Assembly: GCA_963639495.1 (NCBI GenBank) | Contig: CAVHWE010000001.1 | Coordinates: 4,704-68,703, forward strand | Source of the DNA: a bacterium | GTDB lineage: Bacteria > Bacteroidota > Bacteroidia > Bacteroidales > Bacteroidaceae | Direction: 5' to 3' | Length of the DNA: 64,000 nt | Part shown: piece by piece, positions 15,264 to 42,936 of the stretch | Numbering within the stretch: position 1 is the stretch's first letter | How the letters are laid out: every line of letters begins with the position of its first letter | The notes under the pieces: generated by a model | Databases searched by the model: none | What the model was told of the DNA's origin: nothing | Seen by the model: the letters and a program-made list of their open reading frames with translations, nothing else | Translations under genes and position numbers: made by a program

Positions 15264-15271
15264 CAAAGTTA
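15264..15271 (-). promoter_or_regulatory. Bacteroidetes -7 promoter element (TAACTTTG) for feoB
   Basis: Matches the TAnnTTTG consensus ~75 bp upstream of the start codon. Confidence 0.7.
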
Positions 15272-15320
15272 CTAATAAAACTTTGCAACTCAGTAGCAAT
15301 GATGTGGTTTTATAAAAAAA

Positions 15321-15429
15321 TACCTAGAAATGATGAGAGTATCATCAAATCTAGGTATTCTTATCATTATTTCTGATGACGTATGTTCTTATACCTTATT
15401 ATATATAAGAGCATCATCATTTCTTGTGA
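15321..15429. promoter_or_regulatory. Four 16-bp LuxR/NarL-like boxes upstream of feoB; the first two also form the secA terminator hairpin
   Basis: TACCTAGAAATGATGA 15321-15336, TCATCAAATCTAGGTA 15342-15357, TCATTATTTCTGATGA 15364-15379, TCATCATTTCTTGTGA 15414-15429. Confidence 0.55.
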
Positions 15430-18400
15430 TTACAGGTTTCTGCCGTGGCAGTTCTTAAACTTCTTGCCGCTTCCGCATGGACATGGGTCGTTAGGACGTG
15501 GCATGCGCTCAGCACGGTATGGAGTGCGGTTTACTTCTGCGCCCTCTCGGGTGTCCTGGTTAGCAGCTGCCTCCTGTGCCTCACGCTCTGCATCCAGATC
15601 AACCTTGCTCTCTACATAGTTCTGCTGAGTGCGCTGCTCAGGAGCTGCCTCCTGAACTGGCTGCTCTTGCTCCATTACTGGAATCTGACCACGCATCAGA
15701 ATACTTGCAATACGGTCGTACATGTCATTGATCATGGCATCCCAAACCTTGGCACTCTCCAACTTAAAGATGAGGAGAGGATCCTTCTGCTCGTAGCTTG
15801 CATTCTGTACAGAGTGCTTCAGTTCGTCGAGCTTGCGGAGGTTCTCCTTCCAGTCGTCATCGATAATCTGGAGAACAACGCTCTTTTCAAACTCCTTCAC
15901 TACGTTCTTAGCCTCGCTCTCGTATGCCTCCTTGAGGTTGCAAGGAATATTGTACATGCGCTTGCCGTCTGTGATAGGCACCATGATGCGCTCGTATATA
16001 GCACCCTGGTTTTCGTATACCTGCTTGATGATAGGCATAGCTGTAGCCTGGATGCGGTCTGTCTTACGCTTGAATGTAGCCATAGCCTCCTGGAAAGCAC
16101 GCTCTGCCAAATCCTCACGTCTGCCGTTCTCATACTCATCCTCGTTGAATGGAATCTCCATAGCAAGAACTTTCAGGAACTCTTCCTTGGCACCGAAGAA
16201 GTCGTTGTTGTTAACGATGTTCAATACGCGGTCCCAGATGATGTTGGCAATATCCATACCGATACGCTCACCCATGAGGGCGTGGCGACGCTTCTCGTAG
16301 ATAACGGTACGCTGACGGTTCATCACGTCATCATACTCCAAGAGGTGCTTACGGATACCGAAGTTGTTTTCCTCTACCTTGCGCTGGGCACGCTCGATGC
16401 TCTTGCTGATCATTGGGCTTTCGATACGCTCACCATCCTCGAAACCGAGACGGTCCATTACCTTGGCGATACGCTCTGAAGCGAACAGACGCATCAGCTT
16501 ATCCTCCAATGATACGTAGAATACTGAAGAACCTGGGTCACCTTGACGACCGGCACGACCACGGAGCTGACGGTCTACACGACGGCTCTCATGACGCTCT
16601 GTACCGATGATGGCGAGACCACCTGCAGCCTTTACCTCAGGAGTCAGCTTGATATCGGTACCACGACCTGCCATGTTGGTAGCGATGGTTACGGCACCCT
16701 TACCGTTTACTGAGCGACCTGCCTCGGCTACAATCTGAGCCTCCTGCTGGTGCAGCTTAGCGTTCAATACATTATGAGGAATGTTGCGCATCTTCAACAT
16801 CTTGCTCAACAACTCTGAAATCTCGACAGATGTTGTACCTACCAAGACTGGGCGGCCAGCATTACGTGTTTCCTCGATTTCGTCGATAACTGCACGATAT
16901 TTCTCGCGGGCAGTCTTGTATACACGGTCATCCAAGTCCTTACGCTGGATAGGGCGGTTGGTTGGAATCTCAACAACATCGAGTTTGTAGATATCCCAGA
17001 ACTCACCTGACTCTGTACTTGCTGTACCGGTCATACCTGCGAGTTTGTGGTACATACGGAAGTAGTTCTGAAGTGTGATGGTAGCAAAGGTCTGTGTAGC
17101 AGCCTCTACCTTTACGTGCTCCTTAGCTTCAATAGCCTGGTGCAAACCATCGCTCCAGCGACGGCCTTCCATGATACGTCCTGTCTGCTCATCCACAATC
17201 TTCACCTGTCCGTCCATGACAACATATTCGTCGTCCTTATTGAACATGGTGTAACCCTTCAGGAGCTGCTGCAAGGTGTGAACACGTTCGCTCTGTACAC
17301 CATAGTGAGCCAGCATCTCGTCTTTCTTGTCAAGACGCTCCTGGTCGGTAAGGTCTGTGCGTGCCTCGAGTTCACTCATTTCTGTTGTGATATCAGGCAA
17401 TACGAAGAGTTCCTTGTCGTTTACCTGCTTAGCCAACCAGTCGGTTCCCTTATCGGTAAGGTCGGCAGAATTCATTTTCTCGTCTACTACGAAGTACAAT
17501 GGCTCAGTAGCCTTAGGCATCTCACGGTTGTTGTTTGCCATGTAGTATTCCTCGGTCTTCAGCAGACCAGCCTTGATACCTTCCTCAGAAAGATACTTGA
17601 TCAATGGCTTGTTCTTAGGCAATGCCTTGTAAGAACGGAAGAGTGCGAGGAAGCCTTCATCAAGGAGTTCCTGATTCTTAGCTTTTGTACCTTCGTTAAT
17701 CTTCTGCTTAGCCTCGGCGAGCAATTCTGTAGCCTGCTTGCGCTGTACCTCATAAAGTTTCTCAACCAATGGCTGATACTGCTCAAACATCTGGTCGTCG
17801 CCCTTTGGAATAGGACCAGAGATGATCAATGGGGTACGGGCATCATCAATCAATACTGAGTCGACCTCATCGACGATGGCGTAGTTGTGCTGGCGCTGTA
17901 CCAGATCGGCTGGGTTGGTAGCCATGTTATCACGAAGATAATCGAAACCGAACTCGTTGTTGGTACCGAAGGTGATATCTGCCAGGTATGCCTTGCGACG
18001 CTCGTCGGAATTAGGACGGTGCTTGTCGATACAATCTACAGAGAGACCATGGAACATATAGAGAGGTCCCATCCACTCAGAGTCACGCTTAGCCAAATAG
18101 TCGTTCACGGTAACGACGTGAACACCATTACCAGTCAAGGCATTCAGGAAGATAGGTGTTGTACCTACAAGGGTTTTACCCTCACCGGTAGCCATCTCGG
18201 CAATCTTACCCTGATGGAGAACAACACCACCGAAGAGCTGTACATCGTAGTGAATCATTTCCCACTTCATATCATTACCGCCGGCTGTCCAGTGGTTGTG
18301 ATAGATAGCCTTGTCGCCATCGATGGTAACGAAGTCGTTAGCTGGATTAGAAGCCAGCTCGCGGTCGAAGTCGGTAGCAGTAACTATTGTTTCCTCGTTC

Positions 18401-18768
18401 TCTGCGAAACGGCGAGCAGTATCCTTAACGATAGCGAAAACCTGAGGCAAAACCTCGTTGAGGGCTTCCTCATACTTGTCGAGTGCTTCCTGCTCTAACT
18501 TGTCGATCTGGTTGAAGATACCTTCACGCTCATCGATAGGAGTGTCTTCAATTTTAGCCTTGAGTTCAGCAATCTTAGCCTTCTCTTCCTTGGCGTACTC
18601 CTGTACGTACTTCTGAAGTTCTTTTGTTTTTGCACGAAGTTCGTCATTGCTTAAGGCCTGCATCTTAGGATACTCTGCCTTGATCTTTTCTACGATTGGC
18701 TGGATCAACTTCATATCGCGAGTTGACTTGTTGCCAAACAATGACTGGAGAATTTTGTTAAAGTTCAT
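15430..18768 (-). CDS. secA: Preprotein translocase ATPase SecA
   Basis: [29 protein letters not shown]-terminal SEC-C zinc motif [13 protein letters not shown]. Confidence 0.98.
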
Positions 18769-18939
18769 TGTATATTTATTTTTTTTATTATTATTCGATG
18801 ATATTTGGGAGTAAAATCTCCTGTTGTTTATTACTAGCTTGCAAATTTACTAAAAATATCTGTAAATCTGCAAGGAATTGCCAATTATTACCTGTTTTTA
18901 TGGCAAATCTTCTGAGTTTTGCTTACAGAAAGCATAAAA

Positions 18940-19299
18940 TCAGCAGTTTGGACCTCGAATAACAATACTCCCATACGGAACTTTGTATCTATGCTCCGTA
19001 GGGGAATCATAATAAATATGTGAATGAATGTCTGTCAGAATGTCAGAAGAATTGGCGGCAAGTGTTGCCGACAGGATAGGATGATGCGTTGCGATGTTCT
19101 CATCTTCTGATGCCGCTTTGATGGCTTTGAGCACGCAGAGAATGTCCTCCTCCAATGCCTTCGCCTCCGGTTGCTGGATGAATTCATCGTAGGATATATC
19201 CGTAAGCGCAAACTTCAGCGCCTGCTGATAAGTCTGCGCCTCCATGCCGGTTGCCGCCAGAACAACCAAAAGGGCTGTGATATATCTGTTTACCATCAT
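18940..19299 (-). CDS. Short exported hypothetical protein, possibly an eroded alkaline-phosphatase-family gene
   Basis: Signal peptide NRYITALLVVLAATGMEAQ; occupies the slot between the DUF4105 gene and secA. Confidence 0.45.
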   Translation of the reverse strand: MMVNRYITALLVVLAATGMEAQTYQQALKFALTDISYDEFIQQPEAKALEEDILCVLKAIKAASEDENIATHHPILSATLAANSSDILTDIHSHIYYDSPTEHRYKVPYGSIVIRGPNC

Positions 19300-19366
19300 T
19301 GTTGTTTATCTTCTTCTGTTCGGAAACGATGTTGTGCCAATCGTTTCCTTACGTATATTTTAATGT

Positions 19367-20737
19367 CTATTTATTCTTTCTGAATTTCTTTACGATATGC
19401 TTCTGCAAACCATAATTGTTTGGACTTAAATCCATCATGGTCGACTTGACGCAGTATCTCGCTAGCAAAGAAAGTGCCAAAATACTCATACCCTCAGCAT
19501 AGTTCTGCCATATCTGCATGAACAGGGCAATGAGCAGAAGCCATCCCAGGAGTTCGAAATACCAATACTGACGACCTGCTTTCATCCTCTTGACAGTCTT
19601 CCAGGCAAAGATGAGGTTGAGCGGATTCAGTATCAGGATCTGGAAATTTATCTGTACAGTAGGATGCTGCGAGAAGATCATGGTAAAGAGAATCAGTCCC
19701 GGTAATCCTGTCAGGACAAGCAGAATGGCATCAAACCACCAGTAGTTTTTCTTTTTTACACATTCTCTTACCGTTGTTCCTATGATGATGATTGCCAGAA
19801 CTATGGCTATCATTTGTGGTGTAACAGGAGCATCGTCTGTTATTTGTGCCTGGGCAGGGATAATATCGGATGTTTCATCTACCAGAGTGATATAGCCGCT
19901 GGCACTTGTTGCATTGGTTTTGCCGTCTGCAATCTGAGATGCATCAATAAAGTCGGTTCTTCCTTCTGTGGCGAAGTCTTTGCTCAGATTGTCTGGCAAG
20001 AATTCCCATTCTCTTTGTGTGATAGGGCGGTCTGCCTGACAACCCAAAAGAAGGTCATTGCCGAATCTTGCCCAGCGGTGCTGTCCGTTGAGTTTGTGAA
20101 TCTCTTCCCTGTAGGTAGAAGTGGTAGGGATATCTTTAAAGTTGGTACTCTGGTTCCCAATGTTGGAGAGAATCATCTCGCGTGCCCGGGTCGTACAGTT
20201 GTCATAGAAGAAATTGTAGCGGTATACGCGGTTCTCCGGCTGTGCATTCTTGTCGATGCTTCTCAGAATTCCCAGTTTCTCTGTACGGGAGAGGCGGAGG
20301 CGCTGCTGTCTTACCCATCTGCCTTCATGTGCATATTCGGCAATGAAGTCGCTCATAGGGTAGATGCCAATCTGATAATCGGTGAGTCCGAAAACAAAAC
20401 GGAGTACGAAGCAACTTTGGTTAAAACTGAACATACCCCAGTTGACGGCAACATCCGTTCCCATAGCTTTGTTCTGGATGCGTAGAGCGGTATGTCCATA
20501 ATACGACCACACCTCCTGACCTGGTCCGCAAGTCAGGAGAGAAATGTCAACAGAATCGAGCCACGCAGTAGCTTCTTCATTGACACGACTGTTCTGCACA
20601 GAAATATCAGAGTCCTTGTCTCTTGAAAAATCCTGTGCAGCCACTTCAGTAGTTAAATTGATTAAAATTACTGCTAAAATGGCACTAAAAATATGCTTAA
20701 AACGTTTCACGATGCAAAAATACCTTATTATTTTCAA
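19367..20737 (-). CDS. DUF4105 membrane protein, lipoprotein N-acyltransferase Lnb-like (true start probably GTG at 20710)
   Basis: SLLTCGPG..YGHTAL, YNFFYDNC catalytic-type motifs and about five C-terminal TM helices; TATTTTTG -7 element at 20715-20722. Confidence 0.75.
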   Translation of the reverse strand: MKIIRYFCIVKRFKHIFSAILAVILINLTTEVAAQDFSRDKDSDISVQNSRVNEEATAWLDSVDISLLTCGPGQEVWSYYGHTALRIQNKAMGTDVAVNWGMFSFNQSCFVLRFVFGLTDYQIGIYPMSDFIAEYAHEGRWVRQQRLRLSRTEKLGILRSIDKNAQPENRVYRYNFFYDNCTTRAREMILSNIGNQSTNFKDIPTTSTYREEIHKLNGQHRWARFGNDLLLGCQADRPITQREWEFLPDNLSKDFATEGRTDFIDASQIADGKTNATSASGYITLVDETSDIIPAQAQITDDAPVTPQMIAIVLAIIIIGTTVRECVKKKNYWWFDAILLVLTGLPGLILFTMIFSQHPTVQINFQILILNPLNLIFAWKTVKRMKAGRQYWYFELLGWLLLIALFMQIWQNYAEGMSILALSLLARYCVKSTMMDLSPNNYGLQKHIVKKFRKNK

Positions 20738-20809
20738 TTATCCTTCTTTTTTCTAGATTTTTTTTAATACTTTTGCACTCTGAATATAATTTTGAATGAT
20801 TATTAAAGA

Positions 20810-22090
20810 ATGAGAAAGCTTTTTTTAGCAACCCTATTGTTGGGGTCAGCCCTTATGGTTAATGCCCAAAGTGGTACTAATTCGCCATACAGCCAGTATG
20901 GTCTTGGCATCTTGTCAGACCAGACTTCTGGTTTTAATCGCGGTATGAATGGAGTCGGTCTTGGCTTTCATGAGCATAATCAGGTAAACTATCTCAACCC
21001 TGCATCTTATGCTTCGATTGATTCGATGACTTTCATCCTTGATGCCGGTATCTCTGGTCAGGTGACAAATTTTGAAGAGAATGGTGTGAAGAAGAATGCC
21101 AACAACTCAAATTTTGAGTATGTTGTTGCAGGCTTCCGCTTGCTGCCACATGTAGGTATGAGCTTCGGTATCATTCCTTTTACCAATGTGGGCTATAATT
21201 ATTCTGCATCAGAATGGGTGAATGCTGACAAGGAAGCTTACTATACTAATACCTATTCCGGCGATGGTGGTTTGCATCAGGCATACATCGGTGCGGGTTG
21301 GCAACCGGTAAAGGGCTTAGCCGTAGGTGCCAACTTCTCATATCTCTGGGGTAGTATAGACAGGAGTGTATCAAACAGCTACAGCAATTCTTATTACAAG
21401 ACCCTCACCCGCTACTATTCTATGCAGGTGAACAGCTATAAGGTTGATTTCGGTGTACAGTATACCCATCAGTTCTCAAAGAAAGATTGGGCTACCGTAG
21501 GTGTTACCTTCTCACCAGGACATGGTTTGGGAGCTTCTGCTGATATGAAAATCATTTCTAATGATACCCAGAACGGTGTTACCGATACTACCGCTTACTC
21601 TATTGACAAAGCTTATAAGTTGCCTACCATGATTGGTGCGGGTGTGATGTGGAATCATAACAACCAGTGGAAGGTTGGCTTTGATTACAGTCTGCAGAAG
21701 TGGGGTAGCTTGGGTTATCCTAGTTTCGATGGAACCAACTACGCCTTGAAAAATGGTATCTACAAGGATAGAAGCAAGTTCAATCTCGGTGCCCAGTATT
21801 GCTATGGAGAGCGCAGCCGTGCTTTCTTCAAGCGTGTTCAGTATCGTGTAGGTGCCAGCTACGCCACACCTTATTATAAGATGAATGGTGTTGATGGTCC
21901 GAAGGAAATCTCTGTAAGTGCCGGTTTCGGTATTCCTATCATGAACTCTTACAACAACCGCTCTATGCTGAATATCAGCGGTCAGTGGGTGAAGAGTTCG
22001 GCTAAGGATCTGATTAAGGAAAATTCTTTCCGTATCAATATCGGATTCACATTCAACGAGGATTGGTTTAAGAAGTGGAAGATGGATTAA
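20810..22090 (+). CDS. Outer-membrane beta-barrel protein (FadL/long-chain fatty acid transporter-like)
   Basis: Signal peptide; NSPYSQYGLG, NPASY; alternating beta-strand pattern; C-terminal FNEDWF. Confidence 0.75.
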   Translation: MRKLFLATLLLGSALMVNAQSGTNSPYSQYGLGILSDQTSGFNRGMNGVGLGFHEHNQVNYLNPASYASIDSMTFILDAGISGQVTNFEENGVKKNANNSNFEYVVAGFRLLPHVGMSFGIIPFTNVGYNYSASEWVNADKEAYYTNTYSGDGGLHQAYIGAGWQPVKGLAVGANFSYLWGSIDRSVSNSYSNSYYKTLTRYYSMQVNSYKVDFGVQYTHQFSKKDWATVGVTFSPGHGLGASADMKIISNDTQNGVTDTTAYSIDKAYKLPTMIGAGVMWNHNNQWKVGFDYSLQKWGSLGYPSFDGTNYALKNGIYKDRSKFNLGAQYCYGERSRAFFKRVQYRVGASYATPYYKMNGVDGPKEISVSAGFGIPIMNSYNNRSMLNISGQWVKSSAKDLIKENSFRINIGFTFNEDWFKKWKMD

Positions 22091-22099
22091 TCTTCCGCT

Positions 22100-22144
22100 T
22101 ATATATAATAATGTATAGAATCTATATATAATAATGTATAGAAT
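22100..22144. repeat. 23-bp tandem duplication overlapping the lptC start
   Basis: TATATATAATAATGTATAGAAT(C) x2. Confidence 0.85.
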
Positions 22145-22799
22145 AAAAGGCTCTTATGTTGTCGGTATCCTGATGTTCCTGATTTTGGCTGGTTGCCAGA
22201 ACCAGGTAGAACATACTGCGCCCGCCATCCGTCCGCAAGACTCGGTGGCGATGATGACGTCGTATGGTGTAAATACATTGGTAAGCGACTCGGGAGTTAT
22301 GAAATATCGCATCGTAACAGAACGGTGGGAGGTGAATACCAGCAAGAATCCATCTTTGTGGATCTTTGATAAGGGACTTTTGCTGGAGCAGTTTGATGAG
22401 AAATTCCATATTAATAGTTATATCCAGTGTGATACAGCTTATTATTATGATCAGCAGAAGATATGGAAACTTTATGGTAGGGTGAGTATCCTGACCAAAG
22501 ATGGTTTGCGCTTCAATAGTGAGCAACTTACCTGGGACCAGAATAAGCACGAATTGTCAAGTAACGTATTCAGTAAACTTGTTACTCCTGAAAGAACGCT
22601 ACAGGGTTCTCATTTCTGGAGTGATGAAAAGATGACGCGCTATTATGTGAGCAATTCGAAGGGTAGCTTTGAAAAGGGAGACCTGACAGGAGGTGGTGGT
22701 GGTGCCGATACTTTGAGCAGCCAGCCTGATTCTGTCAAGAATAACTTCCGTCAGCCGGCTACACCAGTCAGAGCCACTACGATTCCTATCATGCACTAA
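22134..22799 (+). CDS. lptC: LPS export protein LptC
   Basis: Lipoprotein signal LAGC; TLVSDSG, CDTAYY, SEQLTWD beta-jellyroll pattern of Bacteroidetes LptC. Confidence 0.8.
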   Translation: MYRIKGSYVVGILMFLILAGCQNQVEHTAPAIRPQDSVAMMTSYGVNTLVSDSGVMKYRIVTERWEVNTSKNPSLWIFDKGLLLEQFDEKFHINSYIQCDTAYYYDQQKIWKLYGRVSILTKDGLRFNSEQLTWDQNKHELSSNVFSKLVTPERTLQGSHFWSDEKMTRYYVSNSKGSFEKGDLTGGGGGADTLSSQPDSVKNNFRQPATPVRATTIPIMH

Positions 22800-22818
22800 T
22801 TAAAAAGAAAAAGATATA

Positions 22819-24090
22819 ATGAATGAACAGGTGGATATGAGTTTAGTCGTAGGCATTCTCATTACGATGGTCTTCTCAGCATTCTTCAGCGGAATGGAGA
22901 TTGCCTTCGTCTCTTCCAACCGTATGTTGGCGGAGATGGATAAGGAGAAAAACGGCCTTACGCAACGACTGTTATCTTTGTTTTATAATCATCCGAATGG
23001 CTTTGTCAGTACCATGCTCGTGGGCAACAATATAGCCCTTGTAGTTTATGGTATCCTGATAGCCCGTCTTTTCGACAATACGATTTTCGCAGGTTTTGAT
23101 GCAGCCTTTACGGTGCCTGCAGATACCATTCTGTCTACGCTGATAGTACTCTTTACAGGTGAGTTTCTGCCAAAGACGCTTTTCAAGTCTAATCCGAACC
23201 GCTTGCTTTCTATCTTCAGTCCGATAGCTTATCTGTGCTATGTGGTATTGTGGCCTATCAGCAAGTTCAGTACTTTTTTGAGTAAGTGCCTGCTGCGTCT
23301 GGTAGGTATGAAGATGGATACTGAGGGGGCGGATGAAGGCTTTTCTAAGGTAGACCTTGATTATCTTGTGCAGTCAAGTATCGATAACGCTACCAATGAA
23401 GATGAAATTAATGATGAGGTGAAGATATTCCAGAATGCCCTTGATTTCTCCGATACTAAAGTACGCGACTGTATGGTGCCCCGTACTGAGATTCAGGCTG
23501 TTGAAATGGATACTTCTCTCGAAGAACTGCAGCAGAAATTCATAGAGAGTGGTAATTCGAAAATCATTGTATATGAAGAGGATATAGACCATATTGCGGG
23601 ATATATTCACAGTTCCGAACTGTTCCATCATCCTTCACGTTGGCAGGATCATATCCGTACACTTCCTTTTGTGCCGGAAACGATGCAGGCACAGAAACTG
23701 ATGCAGACTTTTTTGCAGCAGAAGAAGTCTTTAGGTATCGTTGTAGATGAGTTTGGCGGTACCAGCGGTTTGGTGAGTCTGGAAGATATCGTGGAGGAAA
23801 TCTTCGGTGATATAGAAGATGAGCACGATTCAGCCAAGTATGTGGCCAAGAAAACCGATGATGGTGACTATCTCCTTTCTGCACGACTGGAGATTGATAA
23901 GGTGAACGATATGTTTGGTCTTGAACTGCCGGAAAGTGATGAATATATGACTGTAGGTGGTTTAATTCTGCATGAATATCAGAGTTTTCCTAAACTCAAT
24001 GAGGTGATCAAGTTTGATAACTTCGAGTTCAAGATTATCAAGTCAACATCCCGTAAAATAGAGCTTGTTAAACTCCACATCATCAAATAG
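22819..24090 (+). CDS. Hemolysin/CorC-HlyC family (CNNM + CBS + CorC) transporter
   Basis: SAFFSGMEIAF, GEFLPK, MVPRTEI, VVDEFGGTSG, EDIVEEIFGDIEDEHD. Confidence 0.92.
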   Translation: MNEQVDMSLVVGILITMVFSAFFSGMEIAFVSSNRMLAEMDKEKNGLTQRLLSLFYNHPNGFVSTMLVGNNIALVVYGILIARLFDNTIFAGFDAAFTVPADTILSTLIVLFTGEFLPKTLFKSNPNRLLSIFSPIAYLCYVVLWPISKFSTFLSKCLLRLVGMKMDTEGADEGFSKVDLDYLVQSSIDNATNEDEINDEVKIFQNALDFSDTKVRDCMVPRTEIQAVEMDTSLEELQQKFIESGNSKIIVYEEDIDHIAGYIHSSELFHHPSRWQDHIRTLPFVPETMQAQKLMQTFLQQKKSLGIVVDEFGGTSGLVSLEDIVEEIFGDIEDEHDSAKYVAKKTDDGDYLLSARLEIDKVNDMFGLELPESDEYMTVGGLILHEYQSFPKLNEVIKFDNFEFKIIKSTSRKIELVKLHIIK

Positions 24091-24097
24091 CTGAGTT

Positions 24098-24164
24098 AGA
24101 AAAGGGAATTTTTTGCTTTTTTTGAGGTAATAGTCAAAAAAGATAGCAAAAAATTCCCTTTTCT
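24098..24164. terminator. Long inverted repeat, probable terminator
   Basis: AGAAAAGGGAATTTTTTGCT...AGCAAAAAATTCCCTTTTCT. Confidence 0.65.
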
Positions 24165-24266
24165 CGTATTATTTTTGTATTTTTGCAGACAATTGGCTAC
24201 TAGCATCAAAAGTGGTTCAATCTAAACTTAGGAAAAAATAAAAATAATAATAATAATTAAAACGTA

Positions 24267-26417: not shown

Positions 26418-26437
26418 TTCAGACTAGTAAATTCATT

Positions 26438-26493: not shown

Positions 26494-26549
26494 GATATCT
26501 TTTATTGTATCTATTATGATATCTTTTGGAGAAATATCTTCTTTATCTG

Positions 26550-26978: not shown

Positions 26979-27002
26979 ATAGTCTTAATGTTTTTAAAAT
27001 CT

Positions 27003-31805: not shown

Positions 31806-31816
31806 AAATCGGAACG

Positions 31817-32116: not shown

Positions 32117-32144
32117 GAATATTAATAAACATATATATAATATA

Positions 32145-33680: not shown

Positions 33681-33746
33681 GATAGAATTATATTTGAAGT
33701 TTAAATTGTCGTTTCTCTTCTGCAAGGTAGAGAGATGTATCTTGAT

Positions 33747-33784
33747 AAAGCCGTACTCTGGAAAAAGGGTGCGGCTTTTCTTTT
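33747..33784 (+). terminator. Intrinsic terminator after rny
   Basis: AAAGCCGTACTCT...AGGGTGCGGCTTTT plus T-run. Confidence 0.7.
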
Positions 33785-33797
33785 CCCTTTTCAGAAT

Positions 33798-34496: not shown

Positions 34497-34523
34497 AATA
34501 TAGTAGAAAAAGCAATAAAAAAT

Positions 34524-34608
34524 GAAAGTAGTTGCATGTGCTCATGCAGCTACTTTCGTTGGACAATGCAATAGGCTTCATTTGCCATTGAAGCCTATTG
34601 CATTTTTT
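34524..34608. terminator. Two tandem hairpins between convergent ttcA and ccsA
   Basis: GAAAGTAGTTGCATG...CATGCAGCTACTTTC and AATGCAATAGGCTTCA...TGAAGCCTATTGCATTTTTT. Confidence 0.8.
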
Positions 34609-36821
34609 TATGCATACGAGTGCATACCTGGCAAGAAATAGTTTACGCCAAAATAGGTCATCAGTACGCTGAGGAAGGCGAGAAGCATATAGATATGTAT
34701 ATGCAGCGGCTTATGCATCCATCTGATGTCGTTATGAAGAGGAGCTGCATAGATGAGCATGGTGATGAGAGCCCATGTTTCCTTGGCATCCCAACTCCAA
34801 TATTTACCCCAACTGACATTTGCCCAGATGGCACCGATGAAGATGCCTACAGCTATCAGGGCAACGGCAGGGTAGAGTAGAAACTGAGAGAGGGCTGCAA
34901 GCTTTGACTCCGATGCTGTGTCCTGTCTGATATGGGCGATGATACCCTGGATGCCTATTAATGCCATCAGACCGAAGAGGGCATAAGAGAACATGATAAC
35001 CATGACATGTACCGACAGCAACGGTGACTGTAATACCGGCATCAACTGGGTGAGCTGTGGATTACTGTCTGTAATCATGGCTACCAATAATGCGAATGCT
35101 GCCAATAAAGGTCCGTACTGCAGGATGATGCTGAATCGTCTTCTCATAGATAAGGTAATCAACAATACCGACCATGACAGGAACTGCATCGTCTCATAAC
35201 CATTGGATAGAGGAAGATGTCCGGAAATATACCATCTCAATCCGATAACAACGGTAGTTTGCAGAAGCATGATTCCTGCCAGGGATGTACTGATCGTCAG
35301 CAGAATCTTCCGCTTTCTGTCATTGAGCCTGAGGGTAGAAGCGATGACTGCAAGGAGTGCCACGGTAAGATAGAGCATGATAGGCCAGCGCTGGGTGTTG
35401 ATGATATTGTATGCCAGTTCTGCATAGATGGCTGTCTGCGAAGGTATCACCTTTTTTCCGCGGATGTGCTGGTAGTCGTATATCTTGCTTATCAGAGTAG
35501 CTGCCCGCCCCTCATTGTTCATGATGATACTTTCGGCAAGATAATCCATGGATTTTCTGACGAAGTACCACTCCTTAGGCGGCAGGTAGCCATGGATGTT
35601 CTTTTCGCCCGGTGCCAGCCAGGTAATGTTGCCCTTCTTGTCGGTATAAGGATACATTCTAAGCAACTCGCCATTATAAAGCATTCTGATGATGTTGAAT
35701 TTCTCGTCAGCATCCCGGAGACTCTTCTGCAGTTCCTTGTTGCCGCTGCGGTAAGCCTCTTTCAGCGGCTTGTCAAGCTTGTACTCGTTGTATTGATTCC
35801 AAAAATCTGAAAAACTAGCCCACTTGCCTGTTATTCCCAGTACCTGCTGTGCTTCCTTGCTTTTCACTTCTATCATCCTGGCATTTTCCCAGTTGGCTAC
35901 ATCAAATACCCAGCCGCAGAAAATCTGGTTGGCTGTCATCCCGTTCCAAGAAGGTTTACCACTGAGTTTGGTGACGAATGTGGTGGCTACGGTATTGATT
36001 GGGCAGATGCGACTGTTGTAGAGTACGCAGATCTTTCCAAAGTCATCAGCTATCTTATTGTCAACTTTTCTCAGTTCCTGTGCCTGTAGGGGCGCCATAA
36101 ATGTCGGCATAGCCAGCAATACAGCAAGAAGAAGTGCTTTGGCTGCCTGCTGATCTACGGCAAGATGATAGAATTTGCGCATGCGGGTCCGCTTGCTGAT
36201 AAGTGTGTTGAGCAGGGCTATGAATAGAATGAAGTAGCCTATGTAGGTAATGGCTATCCCGTAAGGATCATAATATACCCCCAGGTGAGTGCCCTTCATG
36301 TCTTCATCATAGCCAGCCTGGGTGAATCTGTAGCCTTGATACTGTCCGATATTGTTCATTGAGATATTCAAGGGCTCGTTGTCGGCTGTGATTTCCGAAA
36401 CATAATCCATCGGTGCATCGGTACCCGGATAGTTGATGACCTTGAAGTCCTTTAACTTCAGGGTGAAGCCAAGCTGTTCGGTGGTCTTGTCTTTCAGCAC
36501 CAATTCCTTGATTGGTACTCCCTGGCGCAGATAAATATCGCCGCTCTTGGAGGTAAGCCAGGAGGTAAGTGCCCCCAGCAGGATGAGAAGGAATGCCATG
36601 TGGACCATCCATACAGAGATGCGACGGAACAGGCGATGCTTCAGCATATAGATGAAGCTGACCACAGCCAGGATACCCCATGCTATGACAAACCACAGCG
36701 AACTGTATATATGGGTCTGTGCAAATGCTGTTCCCTTGGAATTCTCAACAAAGGTAGCTGCCATCATCACAATGATGATGATGGTGGCTAAACTGATAAT
36801 AAAACTCTTAAGTTTGTTCAT
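34608..36821 (-). CDS. ccsA: System II cytochrome c biogenesis protein (ResB/CcsB-CcsA fusion)
   Basis: WWD domain WANVSWGKYWSWDAKETW; conserved His in VHMAF, SGHLP, SVHV, GMHSY. Confidence 0.9.
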   Translation of the reverse strand: MNKLKSFIISLATIIIIVMMAATFVENSKGTAFAQTHIYSSLWFVIAWGILAVVSFIYMLKHRLFRRISVWMVHMAFLLILLGALTSWLTSKSGDIYLRQGVPIKELVLKDKTTEQLGFTLKLKDFKVINYPGTDAPMDYVSEITADNEPLNISMNNIGQYQGYRFTQAGYDEDMKGTHLGVYYDPYGIAITYIGYFILFIALLNTLISKRTRMRKFYHLAVDQQAAKALLLAVLLAMPTFMAPLQAQELRKVDNKIADDFGKICVLYNSRICPINTVATTFVTKLSGKPSWNGMTANQIFCGWVFDVANWENARMIEVKSKEAQQVLGITGKWASFSDFWNQYNEYKLDKPLKEAYRSGNKELQKSLRDADEKFNIIRMLYNGELLRMYPYTDKKGNITWLAPGEKNIHGYLPPKEWYFVRKSMDYLAESIIMNNEGRAATLISKIYDYQHIRGKKVIPSQTAIYAELAYNIINTQRWPIMLYLTVALLAVIASTLRLNDRKRKILLTISTSLAGIMLLQTTVVIGLRWYISGHLPLSNGYETMQFLSWSVLLITLSMRRRFSIILQYGPLLAAFALLVAMITDSNPQLTQLMPVLQSPLLSVHVMVIMFSYALFGLMALIGIQGIIAHIRQDTASESKLAALSQFLLYPAVALIAVGIFIGAIWANVSWGKYWSWDAKETWALITMLIYAAPLHNDIRWMHKPLHIHIYMLLAFLSVLMTYFGVNYFLPGMHSYA

Positions 36822-36941
36822 TTAAATTGAATCTACAAATTTAATAACTTGTTGGCGCTGTTCTTTGCTCAGCTTTCGGAAGTTTTCTACTGCCCAGTGC
36901 ACATCGCTCTTGCCTCCTTCTCAGCAATAATCATGCCACAT
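36822..36941 (-). pseudogene. Relic C-terminus of a second di-heme oxidoreductase allele
   Basis: MWHDYC*EGGKSDVHWAVENFRKLSKEQRQQVIKFVDSI*; the last 30 aa are 14/30 identical to the end of 36993-38684; its stop abuts the ccsA ATG. Confidence 0.8.
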
Positions 36942-36992
36942 GCTTCTTCTCCCAGATGGGGTAGAAAGCATGTGGCTTTTTATGATAGAAGT

Positions 36993-38684
36993 TTAAATGG
37001 ATTCACAGAAGAAGATGATGGCAGCTCGCTGATTTGAAGTGAGGTTGCGGAACTTCTCGATAGCGAAACGGGCATCACTCTTGGCATTGCCATGCCACAT
37101 GATAGCCTCCAGCGTGTTGCGGGCACGGCAGTCGTGCAAGCGATCTTCGGCTCCGGTACAGAGTTTAGACAATCCGCGGCCCCAGAGTGGAGTGGTGCGG
37201 CACCAGCCAGTACGGATGTCGTTCTCCATGAAGAGACGGTGCTGTACAAAGTCGGTGTATGGCCAGATCTTCTGGTTGGCATAGCGAGGCATATCGCTGT
37301 TAGTCAGATACTTGTTTGGATCCTGGATATTGTCATCGCCTGTTGTCCATGATGGACGGTGGCAGGATGCACAACCAATCTCAGAGAAGAGTTTCTTGCC
37401 CTGCTCGTATTTTTCGGTACCCACATTGCGGGCTGCAGGAACAGCCAGACCACGATGCCATACCATGAAGTTCTTATACTGCTCGCCGGTCATCTCTACA
37501 TCGAGGTCTTTTGCCATCAAGTAGTTGTAGATGTTCTGCTTTACATCGTCGGTGTGCCAGTCGGCATGCTTCTTCTCAGGGTCAATCTTGTTGATATACT
37601 CAGGGAAACCCTTCTGTACATCAGCATCGTTCATGGCAGTGGTTGCATAAATCTTGCCATCAAGACTCAGGTAATGGTAGCGACGGTCTGGACGGGTAAC
37701 GTTGGTGATGTTCCAGATGGCGTTGGCACCGGCAGCATCAAGCAACGGACCACGGCTCAAAGCGTATGTATAGCGGCGAACATACTTGGTTCCGTCTCCC
37801 TGCAAAGAGTTGGAATAGTAGCTGTTCCACTTGTTCTCAGCCTGGTTCCACATCGCTGGGTTCAAAGCATCAGTCTTTCCCACGGAATTGAAATACTTGC
37901 TCTCAGATTCCCACTGCTTGGTGATTTCCTCATCAGGGATGGCATCAGTAAGACCTGTGCCATAGATACCGATTGTAGATTCGAGACGTATTCCGATTTC
38001 GTCTGCTACCTGATCGTTTGGAATCACTACTTCCTTGCCGTTTCTCATCACGGTAACTGGTGAGTAATAGGCATCTGCAGGGATGGTTACCTCAGGATAA
38101 ATCAGGTCGTAAGTCTCGCCATCAGCAAACTTGTTGCCCCATTCGTCTGTATAGTGCTTCCACTCGATATTGATTTTCTTTTCATCAATCTGTGGCTTGA
38201 ATGGCTCAACAGCACCTGTCTGTGGCATACCTGCTACAGAGTAGATGTAGGCGTTGGTCTTCTTGTCGTAGATAACCAGCAGGTATCCGTTACCCATATC
38301 AGAGTATCTGTAACGCTCCTGACGCTTGCCATGGCCGTATGCTGGATGGCAATAGAGGCATCCCTGACGTACATAGAGAGGACCAAGACCAGCGAATGCT
38401 CCATCGGTATTGGTATTGAAGTCGCGCTCAAAGAGTGCTTCACCAATCTGGAAGGCTGCTCCGAAACCTTGCTGCTCTACGGCAGGAGTAGGCTGCTTGT
38501 AGGCATTGGCACCCTGGAGTGTCGTTGTACCGAGCACACCACCAGCATAATACTCTTCTGACTTTTCTGAAGTACTGCCGCCTCCACCGAGATCAATCAC
38601 ATCATCTACTGTTGATTTGCTGTCGCTACAGCTCATCATAGCCAGAGCGGCGCAAAACAATGGAATTAATTGTCTTTTTTTCAT
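36993..38684 (-). CDS. Di-heme oxidoreductase (DHOR)-family c-type cytochrome lipoprotein
   Basis: Lipoprotein signal MMSC-SD; two CxxCH motifs (CLYCH, CASCH); GLGPLY, RTTPLWG, LHDCRAR, EAIMWH. Confidence 0.88.
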   Translation of the reverse strand: MKKRQLIPLFCAALAMMSCSDSKSTVDDVIDLGGGGSTSEKSEEYYAGGVLGTTTLQGANAYKQPTPAVEQQGFGAAFQIGEALFERDFNTNTDGAFAGLGPLYVRQGCLYCHPAYGHGKRQERYRYSDMGNGYLLVIYDKKTNAYIYSVAGMPQTGAVEPFKPQIDEKKINIEWKHYTDEWGNKFADGETYDLIYPEVTIPADAYYSPVTVMRNGKEVVIPNDQVADEIGIRLESTIGIYGTGLTDAIPDEEITKQWESESKYFNSVGKTDALNPAMWNQAENKWNSYYSNSLQGDGTKYVRRYTYALSRGPLLDAAGANAIWNITNVTRPDRRYHYLSLDGKIYATTAMNDADVQKGFPEYINKIDPEKKHADWHTDDVKQNIYNYLMAKDLDVEMTGEQYKNFMVWHRGLAVPAARNVGTEKYEQGKKLFSEIGCASCHRPSWTTGDDNIQDPNKYLTNSDMPRYANQKIWPYTDFVQHRLFMENDIRTGWCRTTPLWGRGLSKLCTGAEDRLHDCRARNTLEAIMWHGNAKSDARFAIEKFRNLTSNQRAAIIFFCESI

Positions 38685-38825
38685 AATGTTGTAAGTTTAT
38701 TTTATATGATTCATGTATTCTGCTACGTTTCTTCTTGTTTCTGTTTTATTACGCAAAAGGTTGGTAGTCTTTTTTCAAAGGCTACCAACAATTTATCTAT
38801 ATAATATCTTTCTTAGAAACAGGAA

Positions 38826-40022
38826 TTACTTCTTCCAGGTAATCTTCTTCAAAGAGTTGAGGAGCTTCAAGTCATTGTCAGCAAGAGCACGGTAAGTTGG
38901 GATTACGGTGTTCTTGACGAATGCTTCGTTCACCTTCTTGAACTCAGCCTCGAGTTTAGCGTTACCTGAGAATTTCTCGATCTCAGCATCGAGTGCATCG
39001 AGTGCAGCTTCAAGCTCATCAAGTGCAGCCATTGCATCCTTTGCACTCTGGTCTGTGTAGTAGAGTACGAATGGCTTCTTCATGTTGCTGATTTTGTTGA
39101 GGGCTGCATCCAACTTGGTCTGTGCATTCTGTGCTGCTGCCTTCATGTCAGCATCGCTTACCTTGAGGCAAACACCCAGAAGTGATGTTCCTGTTGGCTG
39201 GTCAACTACATTCCAACCGCCATAGAGTGCATGCTTGCAAGACATGATGTTATCATAGAAGTCAACGATAGAGTTGTGAGCAAATGGAGACTCGATATAG
39301 TTGACGTCCTCACCAGTAGCAGGAGCACCGATCTTAGAGTCACGTACCTCACCGATGATTTCGTTGGCACCTGCAATGATTTCACGGGTTGCCAAGGTGA
39401 TAGATGAGTACTTGGAACCTGGCTCACCTGCAGTCATGAAATCCTCACCATAGTTCTTTGATTCAAACTCTGCATCATCAAGAATCTTCTGCTCTGCATC
39501 TGACAAATCTCCACCCCATGCGTTGACCAACTTCAAAGAGCTGAGATACAAATCCTGTGCTGCGCTCTGTGCGAAGTAAACTTCGTTGGCTGTCATATCC
39601 TTGATCTTGCGAGCCTCACCATCACGGAAAATCAGATACTCCACAGCATGGAAACCTGTCAGGTTCTGACCGTTAGCAATCGCATCATCAATCAAGGCTG
39701 CATCATCCTCATCGGTTGCTGGATTGTATTTCTTCATGTATTTATCAAACTGTACGCGGTCGAATGGCCATGTGTCGGTGTGTGGGTCGAGTCCGAAGTC
39801 TGTAGCTGGACCGAAGAGGAATGCCTCAGACCACTCCCAGTCCTGACGAGCCTCTTTCCAGTTGGCACAAGCTTCTGATACCATTGCATCAGTACCATTC
39901 AAGTCAGGATTTACGCTTGATGGAGTCTCTGGCTCATCATTGTCATCACTGCAGCTTGCAAAACCTAATGATAATGTCAAGGCAGCTGCAAAAAGCATTG
40001 AATACTTAAAAATCTTTTTCAT
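38826..40022 (-). CDS. Imelysin-family iron-regulated lipoprotein
   Basis: Lipoprotein signal ASC-SDD; WEWSEAFLFGP, GFHAVEY (GxHxxE), IESPFAHNS. Confidence 0.88.
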   Translation of the reverse strand: MKKIFKYSMLFAAALTLSLGFASCSDDNDEPETPSSVNPDLNGTDAMVSEACANWKEARQDWEWSEAFLFGPATDFGLDPHTDTWPFDRVQFDKYMKKYNPATDEDDAALIDDAIANGQNLTGFHAVEYLIFRDGEARKIKDMTANEVYFAQSAAQDLYLSSLKLVNAWGGDLSDAEQKILDDAEFESKNYGEDFMTAGEPGSKYSSITLATREIIAGANEIIGEVRDSKIGAPATGEDVNYIESPFAHNSIVDFYDNIMSCKHALYGGWNVVDQPTGTSLLGVCLKVSDADMKAAAQNAQTKLDAALNKISNMKKPFVLYYTDQSAKDAMAALDELEAALDALDAEIEKFSGNAKLEAEFKKVNEAFVKNTVIPTYRALADNDLKLLNSLKKITWKK

Positions 40023-40065
40023 TGTTTTTTTTGTTTTATTCTTGTTTTTGACTTTATAATAGAAC

Positions 40066-41484
40066 TTACTTCTTAACCTGTTTTTTCAACTCCTGGAGTT
40101 CCTTGGTGAGCTGGTTGATACGTTCCATCTGGAATTTATCTATCTCCTGGGTCTTCTTGAACTTCTTGTTGATCCAAGTTGTAGTATCGAAGAGACCGAA
40201 GAAAGTGACGCCCAGGTTGAGGCTAGGCTCATTGTTGTAAGCGCTCTCCAGGAATCGGTGGCTATACTCAGCCTTAATGGTGATAGGCTTGATAGGAGAA
40301 TAGTTGATACCGGCACCCATTCTCTTCACGTGGTCGTACTCGTAAGCTACCTTCTTGTTGCCACTGGCGTATGTGTTGTAATCCTCGTAGCGGCCGAAGA
40401 CATAGAACTTCTGCTTGTTTCGGAGACTTTCTATCTGGGAAAAAACATTATAACCGGCTTCGATACCTACAGAATAAGCACTGCTGGCAATAGGAGAGTG
40501 CTTCGAAGGAGAGCCATCCTGCGCATTGTGCTTAGGGAAGGTATTCATGAAGGCTGTCATCTTGGTAGCATCGTCCAGATGCGCATAGGTAGCATTACCA
40601 CGTACTATCCAGTTCCAGCGGTTCAACTCGAAACCAAAGCTGCCGATAGACAAGGCGCCATGTACATCTTTGTATGATGCGCTTGCTTTCTTTTCTGTAT
40701 TCTTGAAAGTATAGCCATAGTAGCCGCTCAAACTGAGTCGCAAACCTGGTATAGAATAGTTGTCAATGCGGGCTGCACCGGCATATACATTACCAATCTT
40801 GTATTCATAAGGACTTGTTGCTCCATAATGAACGAAACAGTTGTGCCCGAAACGCTCTGCATCGAGACCCGATGTGAAGATGGCCTCATAGCGCCAATCC
40901 TTCAACTTACCCCACAGGGAAACACCCACCTGGTGCCAGGTGTTAGGAAGCATTTTGGCTTCACCCTCTGAACGATAGACAGAGAAGAAATTGTTTGGCA
41001 TGTGATAGGCATTGATTTCGCCCACAGGAATGATGATTTCACCAGCCTTGATATTGAACTTGCCACCCCAGAAAGCTTTGTTGAGCCAGAACTGCTCAAG
41101 GGCAACCTCGCCGCCACGCTCTGTCTCAGCCTCATATTCGCCACTTTCATCAGCATCGATTTCTACAGCATTTTCTGTTCCACCATGCTCGAACTCTATT
41201 TCCATTCCCATGGTCCAACCCTGTCCGAAATCATAGCCCAGATTGAGGGTTACGTGTGGCAAGTCGAAACGTCCATGGCTGTCATCGTCCTTATAGGTGG
41301 CAGGGTCTCTGTAACGGTTGAAATGCTGGCTATAGAAGTTGCGGCTCATCACGGCCTCTCCATAACCACCGATGGTAAATCGGGGTTTTGCTGCAGTACT
41401 GTCTGCGCAACACTGTTGTGCATTTGCCGTTGCCAAACCGGCAACTAGGGCAGCGGACATCAATCCAATTCTTAAACTGTTCAT
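40066..41484 (-). CDS. Outer-membrane beta-barrel (porin-like) associated with imelysin operons
   Basis: Signal peptide; IGGYGE, EIEFEHGG, GEVALEQFW, PNTWHQ; beta-strand pattern. Confidence 0.75.
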   Translation of the reverse strand: MNSLRIGLMSAALVAGLATANAQQCCADSTAAKPRFTIGGYGEAVMSRNFYSQHFNRYRDPATYKDDDSHGRFDLPHVTLNLGYDFGQGWTMGMEIEFEHGGTENAVEIDADESGEYEAETERGGEVALEQFWLNKAFWGGKFNIKAGEIIIPVGEINAYHMPNNFFSVYRSEGEAKMLPNTWHQVGVSLWGKLKDWRYEAIFTSGLDAERFGHNCFVHYGATSPYEYKIGNVYAGAARIDNYSIPGLRLSLSGYYGYTFKNTEKKASASYKDVHGALSIGSFGFELNRWNWIVRGNATYAHLDDATKMTAFMNTFPKHNAQDGSPSKHSPIASSAYSVGIEAGYNVFSQIESLRNKQKFYVFGRYEDYNTYASGNKKVAYEYDHVKRMGAGINYSPIKPITIKAEYSHRFLESAYNNEPSLNLGVTFFGLFDTTTWINKKFKKTQEIDKFQMERINQLTKELQELKKQVKK

Positions 41485-41671
41485 TTTTATCTGTTTTGAA
41501 ATGTTATCTGTTTATTATCCTAAAAATAAAAAGAAAAGAGCGCAGATATCTGCTTGCTTTCTCGACACTTTAGAGACCTAGTATCTCCTTAAAAGCCCTA
41601 TAGACTTAATAAGGAATTACGCAGCTCTGCCGCTCGGGAGTGGCAATCATCACCGCGCTCTTTCTCGATTT
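41485..41671 (-). promoter_or_regulatory. Long structured 5' leader of the porin-imelysin operon (candidate cis-regulatory RNA)
   Basis: An 11-bp closing stem (41663-41653 with 41545-41535) encloses several hairpins and is followed by a U-rich tract; -7 element TACCTTTG at 41678-41685. Confidence 0.5.
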
Positions 41672-41677
41672 CGGGTG

Positions 41678-41781
41678 CAAAGGTACGGTGTTTTAAAATA
41701 TCTTGCAATACCTAAAAATCGGTAAACTGCCGCATCCCCATTTCTAGGTATTGCGAGTTTCGAAACTTTTTTGTATATTTG
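41678..41781. promoter_or_regulatory. Symmetric divergent promoter with two 16-bp LuxR-type boxes
   Basis: -7 elements at 41678-41685 (-) and 41774-41781 (+); boxes TACCTAAAAATCGGTA 41709-41724 and TCCCCATTTCTAGGTA 41735-41750. Confidence 0.65.
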
Positions 41782-41847
41782 CAACCGAAATAGAAACATT
41801 ATGAATGTTCTTGATACAAGGATGTTTTCATTTAAGGAGAAAGAAAG

Positions 41848-42804
41848 ATGAAAAATCAGAAGATGTATGAAGCTGATGACAAGATGATCAGCATCATTAG
41901 AGACAATTATAACATTTTACAGAGCCTCGGCAGCTTCGGCATCAACCTGGGCTTTGGTGATAAAACTGTGCGCGAAGTTTGCGACGAGCAGAAGGTGGAT
42001 ACTTATACATTTCTGGCTGTGGTAAACTTTACAATTAATGGTTACAAGGAGTATGACAATGCCGACCGCTTGTCGTTGCCAACTTTGTTGCATTATCTCA
42101 AGGCATCCCACGTTTATTATATTGATTTCCAGTTGCCTTTCATCCGTAAGGAACTCGTTGAGGCTTTGGATGAAACGGATAATCTTGCCCGTCTTATCCT
42201 CAAACTTTATGATGATTATGCCCATAGCATTACCAATCACATGCGGTATGAGGAAAAGATGGTATTCCCTTATGTTCAGGCACTTATAGACGGTAATGCT
42301 AATGCAAACTTTGATATAGAAACCTTCTCGAAGCATCATGCTCAGGTAGATATGAAGCTGAAGGAACTCAAGAGCATCATCATCAAGTATCTGCCTTCAG
42401 ATGGTTTGCATAACAATCAGTTGAGTGCTACCCTTTATGATATATATAATAATGAGGAATGGCTGAGGCATCATTCTGAGGTTGAGGAAGAAATCTTTAT
42501 TCCTGCTGTAAGAAATGCGGAACGTAAGCTGAAGCAGAATGATGTGAGTGCCAAGATTTCGAGCATGATAAATCAGACTCCGATGAGTGACGAGCAGTTG
42601 AGCGACCGAGAGAAAGATGTGATTGTGGCTTTGGTTCAGGGAATGACCAACAAGGAGATTGCTGACCACCTGTTTATCTCTATCAATACGGTCATTACGC
42701 ATCGCAGAAACATCGCCCGAAAGCTTCAGATTCACTCTCCTGCAGGTCTTACAATTTATGCCATCGTGAACAATTTGGTTGATATTTCTTCTGTAAAGCT
42801 GTAG
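41848..42804 (+). CDS. Hemerythrin-like (ScdA/RIC-type) domain fused to a LuxR HTH regulator
   Basis: ScdA_N-like GFGDKTVREVC; His/Glu ligands SHVYY, HMRYEE, HHAQ, HHSEVEE; LuxR HTH LSDREKDV...TVITHRRNI. Confidence 0.85.
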   Translation: MKNQKMYEADDKMISIIRDNYNILQSLGSFGINLGFGDKTVREVCDEQKVDTYTFLAVVNFTINGYKEYDNADRLSLPTLLHYLKASHVYYIDFQLPFIRKELVEALDETDNLARLILKLYDDYAHSITNHMRYEEKMVFPYVQALIDGNANANFDIETFSKHHAQVDMKLKELKSIIIKYLPSDGLHNNQLSATLYDIYNNEEWLRHHSEVEEEIFIPAVRNAERKLKQNDVSAKISSMINQTPMSDEQLSDREKDVIVALVQGMTNKEIADHLFISINTVITHRRNIARKLQIHSPAGLTIYAIVNNLVDISSVKL

Positions 42805-42847
42805 TTTATCTGTGGAATATCAGTTTAAATAATGTTATTTTTTATAA

Positions 42848-42891
42848 AATGATAGCGCCTTTCTCCTAGTCTGGAGGAAGGCGCTATCATT
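42848..42891. terminator. Bidirectional terminator between the two LuxR genes
   Basis: AATGATAGCGCCTT...AAGGCGCTATCATT. Confidence 0.8.
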
Positions 42892-42936
42892 ATATTTAGG
42901 TATGTGATAATTCAGCATCACTATTTATGGTGAAGG

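Follow-up and report, generated by a model that had tools for sequence, protein, structure and literature searches.

A conserved 16-bp promoter motif of Prevotella iron genes and a hemerythrin–LuxR fusion as its probable reader

The window analysed here is a stretch of 64,000 nucleotides (nt) from a bacterium of the family Bacteroidaceae (GenBank assembly GCA_963639495.1, contig CAVHWE010000001.1, forward-strand positions 4,704 to 68,703). It carries a 16-bp inverted repeat, hereafter the box, in the promoters of the ferrous iron uptake gene feoAB, of an operon encoding imelysin and a di-haem oxidoreductase (DHOR), and of a gene for a hemerythrin–LuxR fusion protein. The box is a real motif. 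It is a conserved, position-fixed promoter motif of Prevotella iron genes and probably the operator of the fusion protein, whose dimer is predicted to occupy it under iron scarcity. A prediction made earlier from the letters of the window alone had proposed a shared NarL/LuxR-type operator joining these three promoters, and both conservation and matches at iron genes support it. Beyond that prediction, the proposed regulon is genome-wide, its commonest slot is offset 39 (counted from the first base of the box to the first T of the promoter element TAnnTTTG), and at iron-using genes there is another class of sites, which overlap the promoter.

All eight 16-mers named in the original prediction were located at their coordinates, and the 12-mer TACCTAGAAATG is indeed identical at 15321 (plus strand) and 41750 (minus strand). 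We scored them with a matrix built from 39 sites at regulator and feoB orthologs in other genomes only, and six of the eight reach 13.2–18.5 bits (Table 1). Of the four boxes proposed before feoB, those at 15321 and 15342 score well; those at 15364 and 15414 should be called weak because their scores are only 9.3 and 8.6 bits. The matrix consensus is TMCYYAW-NN-WTRRKKA, and the best palindromic frame is 16 bp long (TACCTAW-NN-WTAGGTA), that is, an inverted repeat of TAC-initiated heptamers.

A matrix built from the eight window sites finds 12 matches of at least 17 bits in the genome, 11 of them intergenic, with intergenic DNA making up about 10% of the genome. The outside-trained matrix gives 25, 16, 10, and 6 intergenic matches here at 12, 14, 16, and 18 bits, compared with means of 6.8, 2.1, 0.5, and 0.09 for column-permuted palindromic matrices. 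Since none of 300 permuted matrices reached the observed count at any of the four thresholds, the motif is beyond chance. Searching five near-complete Prevotella genomes with a fixed pattern returned 14, 13, 7, 8, and 18 strand matches versus 2, 4, 2, 0, and 1 for the reversed control. Dinucleotide shuffles gave means of at most 0.19 regions with a site of at least 12 bits; the observed counts were 19/23 for feoB, 10/22 for fldA, 21/24 for the ferredoxin gene fdx, 16/22 for sdhC, and 11/27 for regulators of other genera and families.

TAnnTTTG is the −7 promoter element defined in PMC7366714. It stands at 15271 (minus strand), 41685 (minus strand), and 41774 (plus strand), and gives box edges at 50 and 24 bp just as had been described; a 24-bp edge corresponds to offset 39 and a 50-bp edge to offset 65. 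Conservation in orthologous promoters was a check set beforehand, and the box is kept at the feoB, imelysin-operon, and regulator promoters. The feoB survey covered the best 30 loci of 41 matching genomes, 23 of them below 80% identity. Among these distant orthologs 22/23 have a box: 16 at offset 65, 2 at 66, 1 at 67, 2 at 54, and 1 at 76. The imelysin operon has one in 25 of 26 distant loci, 22 of them at offset 39. When 31 distinct windows from distant regulator orthologs were compared by position alone, palindromic information peaked at −39, with 7.5 bits versus at most 6.3 elsewhere. TAnnTTTG lies within 130 nt in 30 of 63 regulator upstream regions, and 24 of these 30 (partly the training set) have a box at 39±1. 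In regulator promoters the offset-39 box directly precedes TTGC or TTGT, a −33-like element.

Four further promoters, those of flavodoxin, ferredoxin, sdhC, and a NifU-like gene, were outside the matrix training. The flavodoxin-DUF2023 promoter has a box at 39 or 64–67 in 22/29 loci. Genome-wide matches at iron genes had been expected and were found; additional boxes in this genome lie upstream of fldA, a CobN chelatase, and an OprB-like porin. Among 40 loci from 7 genomes that were found by pattern only, 21 pairings among 58 sites are exactly at 39; the genes behind them are for the most part those of TonB receptors, PepSY proteins, flavodoxin, and TetR/MMPL, and the imelysin-operon gene. Pairings at offset 4 were left out as a slot because TAnnTTTG occurs within the box itself. 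The further activator-type slots (54, 65, and 76) are about 11 bp apart. If the element lies at about −7, the box centres would fall near −44 and −70, similar to where class II and class I activators, respectively, bind.

The second class of sites is found at iron-using genes. At the 2x[4Fe-4S] ferredoxin, the box lies at 31–34, over the −33 position, in 29 of the 30 loci examined from 45 matching genomes. For sdhC it lies 27–30 nt downstream of the T of TAnnTTTG (26 matches in 30 loci), and for the NifU-like gene at 34–35 (12/30 loci, 7 of them near-identical Segatella copri-like copies). The position of the box relative to TAnnTTTG is fixed, and it predicts the sign of iron regulation, with starts 39 or about 65 nt upstream marking uptake or iron-free genes.

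Published RNA sequencing of Prevotella intermedia in low iron allows one to compare slot with sign (PMC10434189). In that study fldA-DUF2023 rose about 160-fold; TonB, TetR/MMPL, and hmu loci were up, and the FeoB locus rose 2.4–8.6-fold; ferredoxin fell 8.9-fold and sdh/frd about 9-fold. The slot class matches the sign of these reported responses. The same paper gives an increase of 63–324-fold in low iron for the CcsA/thiol-oxidoreductase/peptidase-M75 locus of Bacteroides thetaiotaomicron.

The likely reader of the box is the fusion encoded at 41848–42804, a regulator of the CdhR type, acting as a homodimer. The regulator of this 76%-complete genome is 99% identical to Segatella copri proteins. 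It has 318 amino acids, with a C-terminal LuxR/GerE helix-turn-helix (HTH) domain (PF00196, E 4e-18) and a hemerythrin domain (PF01814); split and fused forms occur across genera. Residues 1–223 show homology to ScdA and YtfE, which are RIC proteins (match to positions 7–223 of the ScdA profile, E 2e-9), and a structure model resembles ScdA (Z 15.8, root-mean-square deviation 3.4, 151 residues aligned). The RIC His/Glu ligand positions align in the fusion, the first His being off by one residue in the profile alignment. H88, H131, E135, H209, and E213 are invariant, and H163/H164 near-invariant, across fused and split forms. The sensor has a di-iron-type fold, and a di-iron centre is predicted from these conserved residues. 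The fusion scores only 55.5 bits against TIGR03652, whose RIC equivalog cut-off is 204.7. No FUR domain (PF01475) was matched in it at E 0.1.

In a quick IQ-TREE analysis of the HTH (74 columns), the fusion clusters with the LuxRs whose genes follow a hemerythrin gene in split-gene genera (45-row clade, SH-aLRT 97); the tree and alignments represent CdhR by the LuxRs of those genera, P. gingivalis PG1237 itself not being among the sequences. The N-terminal receiver-like domain of the 200-amino-acid CdhR type is absent from the fusion and present in the second LuxR of the window (42937–43566), and the fusion is therefore filed as a fused variant and not as CdhR proper. The hemerythrin-regulator domain was found in 67/70 genomes of the family. 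Two contigs carry two copies of the hemerythrin regulator, about 8 kb apart in one (G121:C63) and 31 kb apart in the other (G134:C110).

One of the closest relatives is the PG1236/CdhR (PG1237) pair of Porphyromonas gingivalis, which, like BT_0519-0520, has the same hemerythrin plus LuxR architecture. CdhR exerts positive control over hmuY and a TetR/MMPL locus: upon cdhR deletion, hmuY falls 9.7-fold, and the PG1178-81 TetR locus and PG1236 are also down (PMC11018363, Table 3). Deletion of PG1236 alone lowers hmuY 15-fold, possibly through a polar effect (PMC11018363). A P. gingivalis-type hmuY-hmuR-cobN metagenome locus (L353), found via the published PG1549 primer, has a single strong box in 8 kb, which is followed by TTGC and lies 39 nt before CAACTTTG. 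This hmuY locus is the most direct connection between the box and CdhR that we found. Genus g35 also speaks for the link: these are the three family genomes in which the hemerythrin regulator was not found (0/3), their box pattern is at background (1 match vs. 3 in the control), and feoB has a box in 0/3. The fusion differs from CdhR in having no receiver-like domain, and its proposed regulon is genome-wide and includes repressed iron-using genes.

We propose that an iron-poor RIC domain permits DNA binding by the fusion dimer. A dimer sitting beside the −33 element at offset 39, or higher up by at least one helical turn (54, 65, and 76), would recruit RNA polymerase and so activate feoAB, the imelysin/DHOR/CcsA operon, flavodoxin-DUF2023, hmu/cobN, TonB receptors, TetR/MMPL loci, and its own gene, where the box would give positive feedback on the regulator. 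Over the −33 element (31–35), or 27–30 nt downstream and inside the transcript, it would repress ferredoxin, the NifU-like gene, and sdhCAB/frd. Repression of iron-using genes would spare iron, and the cell would switch to an iron-saving mode.

Several observations weigh against this reading and should be kept in mind. The family-wide excess of the fixed pattern is modest (299 matches vs. 163 in the control), and ortholog counts are not independent, as orthologs share ancestry. Ferredoxin promoters outside the genus have a box at 31–34 in 0/15 cases; the repression arm looks genus-specific, and with the slot empty these promoters are uninformative for telling the two LuxRs apart. Rubrerythrin is reported as the most repressed P. 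intermedia gene in low iron (−22-fold; PMC10434189), and no box was seen in the 8 rubrerythrin loci examined out of 12 retrieved, so it was rejected as a conserved direct target. Some S. copri boxes precede non-iron genes (recJ, enolase, and a Rid-like gene). In small samples the boxes at recJ (1/5) and at the Rid-like gene (1/3) do not extend past S. copri; neither gene was retained as a conserved direct target. The fused regulator is not named among the P. intermedia genes up at least 2-fold in the table of PMC10434189. Binding of CdhR at the hmuY promoter is credited to Wu 2009 by PMC11018363 (Boutrin 2023), whose authors were unable to confirm it and, in the text available to us, state no consensus. 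The weight of g35 is limited, since it is one lineage that also lacks the second LuxR and so does not tell the two proteins apart; near ferredoxin, moreover, a site of 11.8 bits was seen in one of its genomes.

The original prediction had also suggested a heterodimer of the fusion with the second LuxR, and that part went unsupported. Reading of the box by such a heterodimer, or competition by the second LuxR for the same sites, seems to us fairly unlikely. The two proteins have nearly identical recognition helices (motif TVITHR[RK]) and their genes lie near each other in 30/45 distant loci, sometimes in tandem, which makes cross-binding by the second LuxR plausible; half-sites are often unequal, and the second LuxR retains the receiver-like domain of split CdhR that the fusion has lost. 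It matches the hemerythrin-adjacent LuxRs at 99.9% in hhalign, forms a separate clade in the HTH tree, and was found in 56/70 family genomes. However, the strong half-site is distal to the promoter in the 39 slot of the regulator gene itself, whereas in other 39 slots it mostly faces the promoter (12 vs. 3 of 24), so the asymmetry can no longer be read as an oriented heterodimer, and that version was dropped. Many ferredoxin boxes have two strong halves, no box lies upstream of the second LuxR (0/30 loci), and the motif excess persists (30 matches vs. 13 in the control) in 11 genomes where no second LuxR was detected. A homodimer is the simpler reading of these sites.

The same regulator and box could instead respond to damage by nitric oxide (NO) or O2, or to Fe-S cluster status, rather than to iron level. 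The sensor is a full RIC (ScdA/YtfE) homolog, and proteins of the RIC family have been connected with Fe-S repair and with NO stress. In P. gingivalis, NO induces PG1236-cdhR, and the mutants are NO-sensitive (PMC11018363). We nevertheless regard this signal as unlikely to be the one that matters, as the targets are iron uptake and iron-sparing genes, the published chelation responses fit the box position, and no box was found at the rubrerythrin loci examined. The iron and NO/O2 signals are not mutually exclusive.

That the box belongs to another factor, such as a Fur-family or ECF-linked one, with the LuxR genes as mere targets, is very unlikely. Fur-family genes are present in 68/70 family genomes, and SigCH, PgFur, and HaeR have been reported to act on hmuY (PMC13403362). 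Genus g35, however, has Fur-family genes (3/3) yet no motif excess, and the box occupies an activator-type slot of the regulator's own promoter. Its TAC-initiated 7-2-7 shape fits the HTH domains of LuxR/NarL proteins, which bind sites of exactly that kind. In two other genera, the palindrome that overlaps the feoB promoter is a different one. This palindrome, ATTTA-N9-TAAAT, presumably Fur-like, was seen in loci L202 (genus g22) and L204 (g19), with a similar one in L347; L204 carries the 16-bp box besides. The notion that Prevotella lacks Fur was considered and rejected: Fur was not found in this incomplete genome and is present in 4/4 other genomes of the genus.

The reading of the 16-mers as terminator arms or a dispersed repeat is scarcely credible and largely refuted, even though a hairpin with a U-tract can form after secA from the 15321/15342 pair, the 42887 box shares sequence with a terminator arm, and the genome holds an unrelated AT-rich repeat, since distant feoB loci keep a single box at 65 without secA and the promoter spacing is fixed across five gene families.

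Comparison with known systems helps to place the proposed regulator. NarL and NarP operators are 16-bp inverted repeats of TAC-initiated heptamers (7-2-7), as is the box, whereas the fusion has no phospho-receiver or kinase and the promoter is of the Bacteroidota −7/−33 type. In CRP/LuxR class I and II activation, one slot likewise abuts the upstream element and others lie further up. ScdA and YtfE have the same fold and aligned His/Glu residues, although here the RIC domain serves as the input domain of a transcription factor. Irr of alphaproteobacteria follows the logic proposed here, in which a single factor works under low iron and both switches on uptake genes and represses iron-using ones; unlike the fusion, which has no FUR domain and is built from unrelated domains, Irr is a Fur-family protein controlled by heme.

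The regulator itself and the low-iron stimulon are already published, and the fused form was noted as PIN17_RS10465 of P. intermedia (PMC10434189, Fig 3E legend). The accessible parts of PMC10434189 and PMC11018363 call the mechanism of CdhR unclear and give no operator consensus. We found no description of the operator or its dual positional logic in the full-text literature searched; Wu 2009, Chawla 2010, RegPrecise, and supplements lay outside that search and may hold part of it. A 2025 preprint on IroR states that Fur-type iron control had gone unreported in the phylum, a 2026 review states that PgFur does not control iron homeostasis, and both, in the text available, treat transcriptional control as open. 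Iron sensing in Bacteroidota is stated in recent papers to be unresolved, and an operator whose sign depends on its position would bear on that question. The boldest form of the proposal is that RIC-LuxR/CdhR is the missing master iron regulator of Bacteroidales, the fold of a di-iron repair protein having been turned into an iron gauge, with one box driving both uptake and sparing (flavodoxin on, ferredoxin and sdh off) by position alone, without Fur or a RyhB-like RNA, and that this explains CdhR control of hmuY in P. gingivalis; to us the case for it is evenly balanced. With an operator of this kind, a single regulator would account for a large part of the low-iron stimulon published for dominant anaerobes of the gut, rumen, and mouth, and the box would offer an iron-responsive promoter part for engineering gut commensals.

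Table 1. Features of the 64,000-nt window that bear on the box and its proposed reader
Feature	Positions	Strand	Basis
feoA-feoB fusion, ferrous iron uptake, predicted activated target	12658..15189	-	Pfam FeoA, FeoB_N, Gate, FeoB_C
TAnnTTTG (−7) element of feoAB	15264..15271	-	sequence
Box, offset 65 from feoAB −7 element, conserved feoAB site	15321..15336	.	14.0 bits; 19/23 distant orthologs at 65–67
Second box, 21 nt further upstream; hairpin with 15321	15342..15357	.	13.2 bits; pair in 7 S. copri-like of 30 loci
Weak box-like 16-mer, doubtful	15364..15379	.	9.3 bits
Weak box-like 16-mer adjoining secA stop, doubtful	15414..15429	.	8.6 bits
secA, upstream neighbour, outside regulon	15430..18768	-	Pfam; adjoins feoB in 10/30 loci
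ResB-CcsA cytochrome c biogenesis fusion, likely last imelysin-operon gene	34608..36821	-	Pfam
Di-haem oxidoreductase (DHOR)	36993..38684	-	Pfam PF06537
Imelysin (peptidase M75)	38826..40022	-	Pfam PF09375; weak EfeO match
First imelysin-operon gene, probable outer-membrane protein	40066..41484	-	no Pfam match; similar L222 gene has weak outer-membrane protein beta-barrel match
TAnnTTTG of imelysin-operon promoter	41678..41685	-	sequence
Box: offset 39 for imelysin operon (abuts TTGC, −33-like), offset 65 for regulator gene	41709..41724	.	13.7 bits; offset 39 in 22/26
Box: offset 39 for regulator gene (autoregulation slot), offset 65 for imelysin operon	41735..41750	.	18.5 bits; 24/30 at 39±1
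TAnnTTTG of regulator promoter	41774..41781	+	sequence
RIC(ScdA/YtfE)-like hemerythrin domain plus LuxR/GerE HTH, CdhR-type regulator	41848..42804	+	Pfam, residues, profile, model, HTH tree
Terminator-like hairpin between convergent LuxR genes	42849..42890	.	fold
Box downstream of regulator, no fixed-distance promoter	42887..42902	.	15.0 bits
Second downstream box, 31 nt from first	42918..42933	.	15.3 bits
Second LuxR: receiver-like N-terminal domain plus GerE HTH, paralog of split-system CdhR	42937..43566	-	Pfam, hhalign, tree

The original prediction had itself cautioned that 15321–15357 may simply be the secA terminator, a caveat that stands in part. The 15321/15342 pair folds into a hairpin of −23.6 kcal/mol followed by T7 on the secA strand, and therefore probably doubles as the secA terminator, although a simple terminator scan did not call it. 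Among the distant feoB loci, secA is adjacent in only 3/23, and the single box at offset 65 persists without it, mostly without a strong hairpin; what has been conserved is therefore the operator, and its use as a terminator was probably added locally. The AT-rich repeat mentioned above, TATACCTTATTATATA, has 26 copies genome-wide, one of them at 15390–15405 in the feoB-secA spacer.

Neither of the boxes at 42887 and 42918 lies at a fixed distance from any TAnnTTTG, and the former overlaps one arm of the hairpin that lies between the LuxR genes and resembles a terminator. Boxes within 200 nt after the regulator stop codon occur in 31/33 S. copri-like loci versus 0/45 distant ones. They are often paired, 20–21 or 31 nt apart, and persist where the second LuxR was not found. 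Boxes of this type could possibly act as a looping partner, a roadblock, or a decoy.

Some boxes elsewhere are worth recording. In S. copri, boxes lie upstream of enolase at offsets 49 and 77 (this genome, contig C9:8848-8891), and in genome G052 a box is at offset 39 where enolase comes after flavodoxin. Several boxes, one at offset 39, stand before the OprB-like porin, downstream of a P-type ATPase gene (contig C160:477-600; locus L208). An 18.8-bit box with no open reading frame behind it lies at offset 24 from a minus-strand TAnnTTTG (contig C2:40361) and marks a candidate repressed small or antisense RNA.

In S. copri relatives with a regulator 95–99% identical to the one here, the imelysin-operon proteins (34608–41484 in the window) often share only 29–55% identity; this suggests that alleles of the operon have been exchanged while the promoter in front was conserved.

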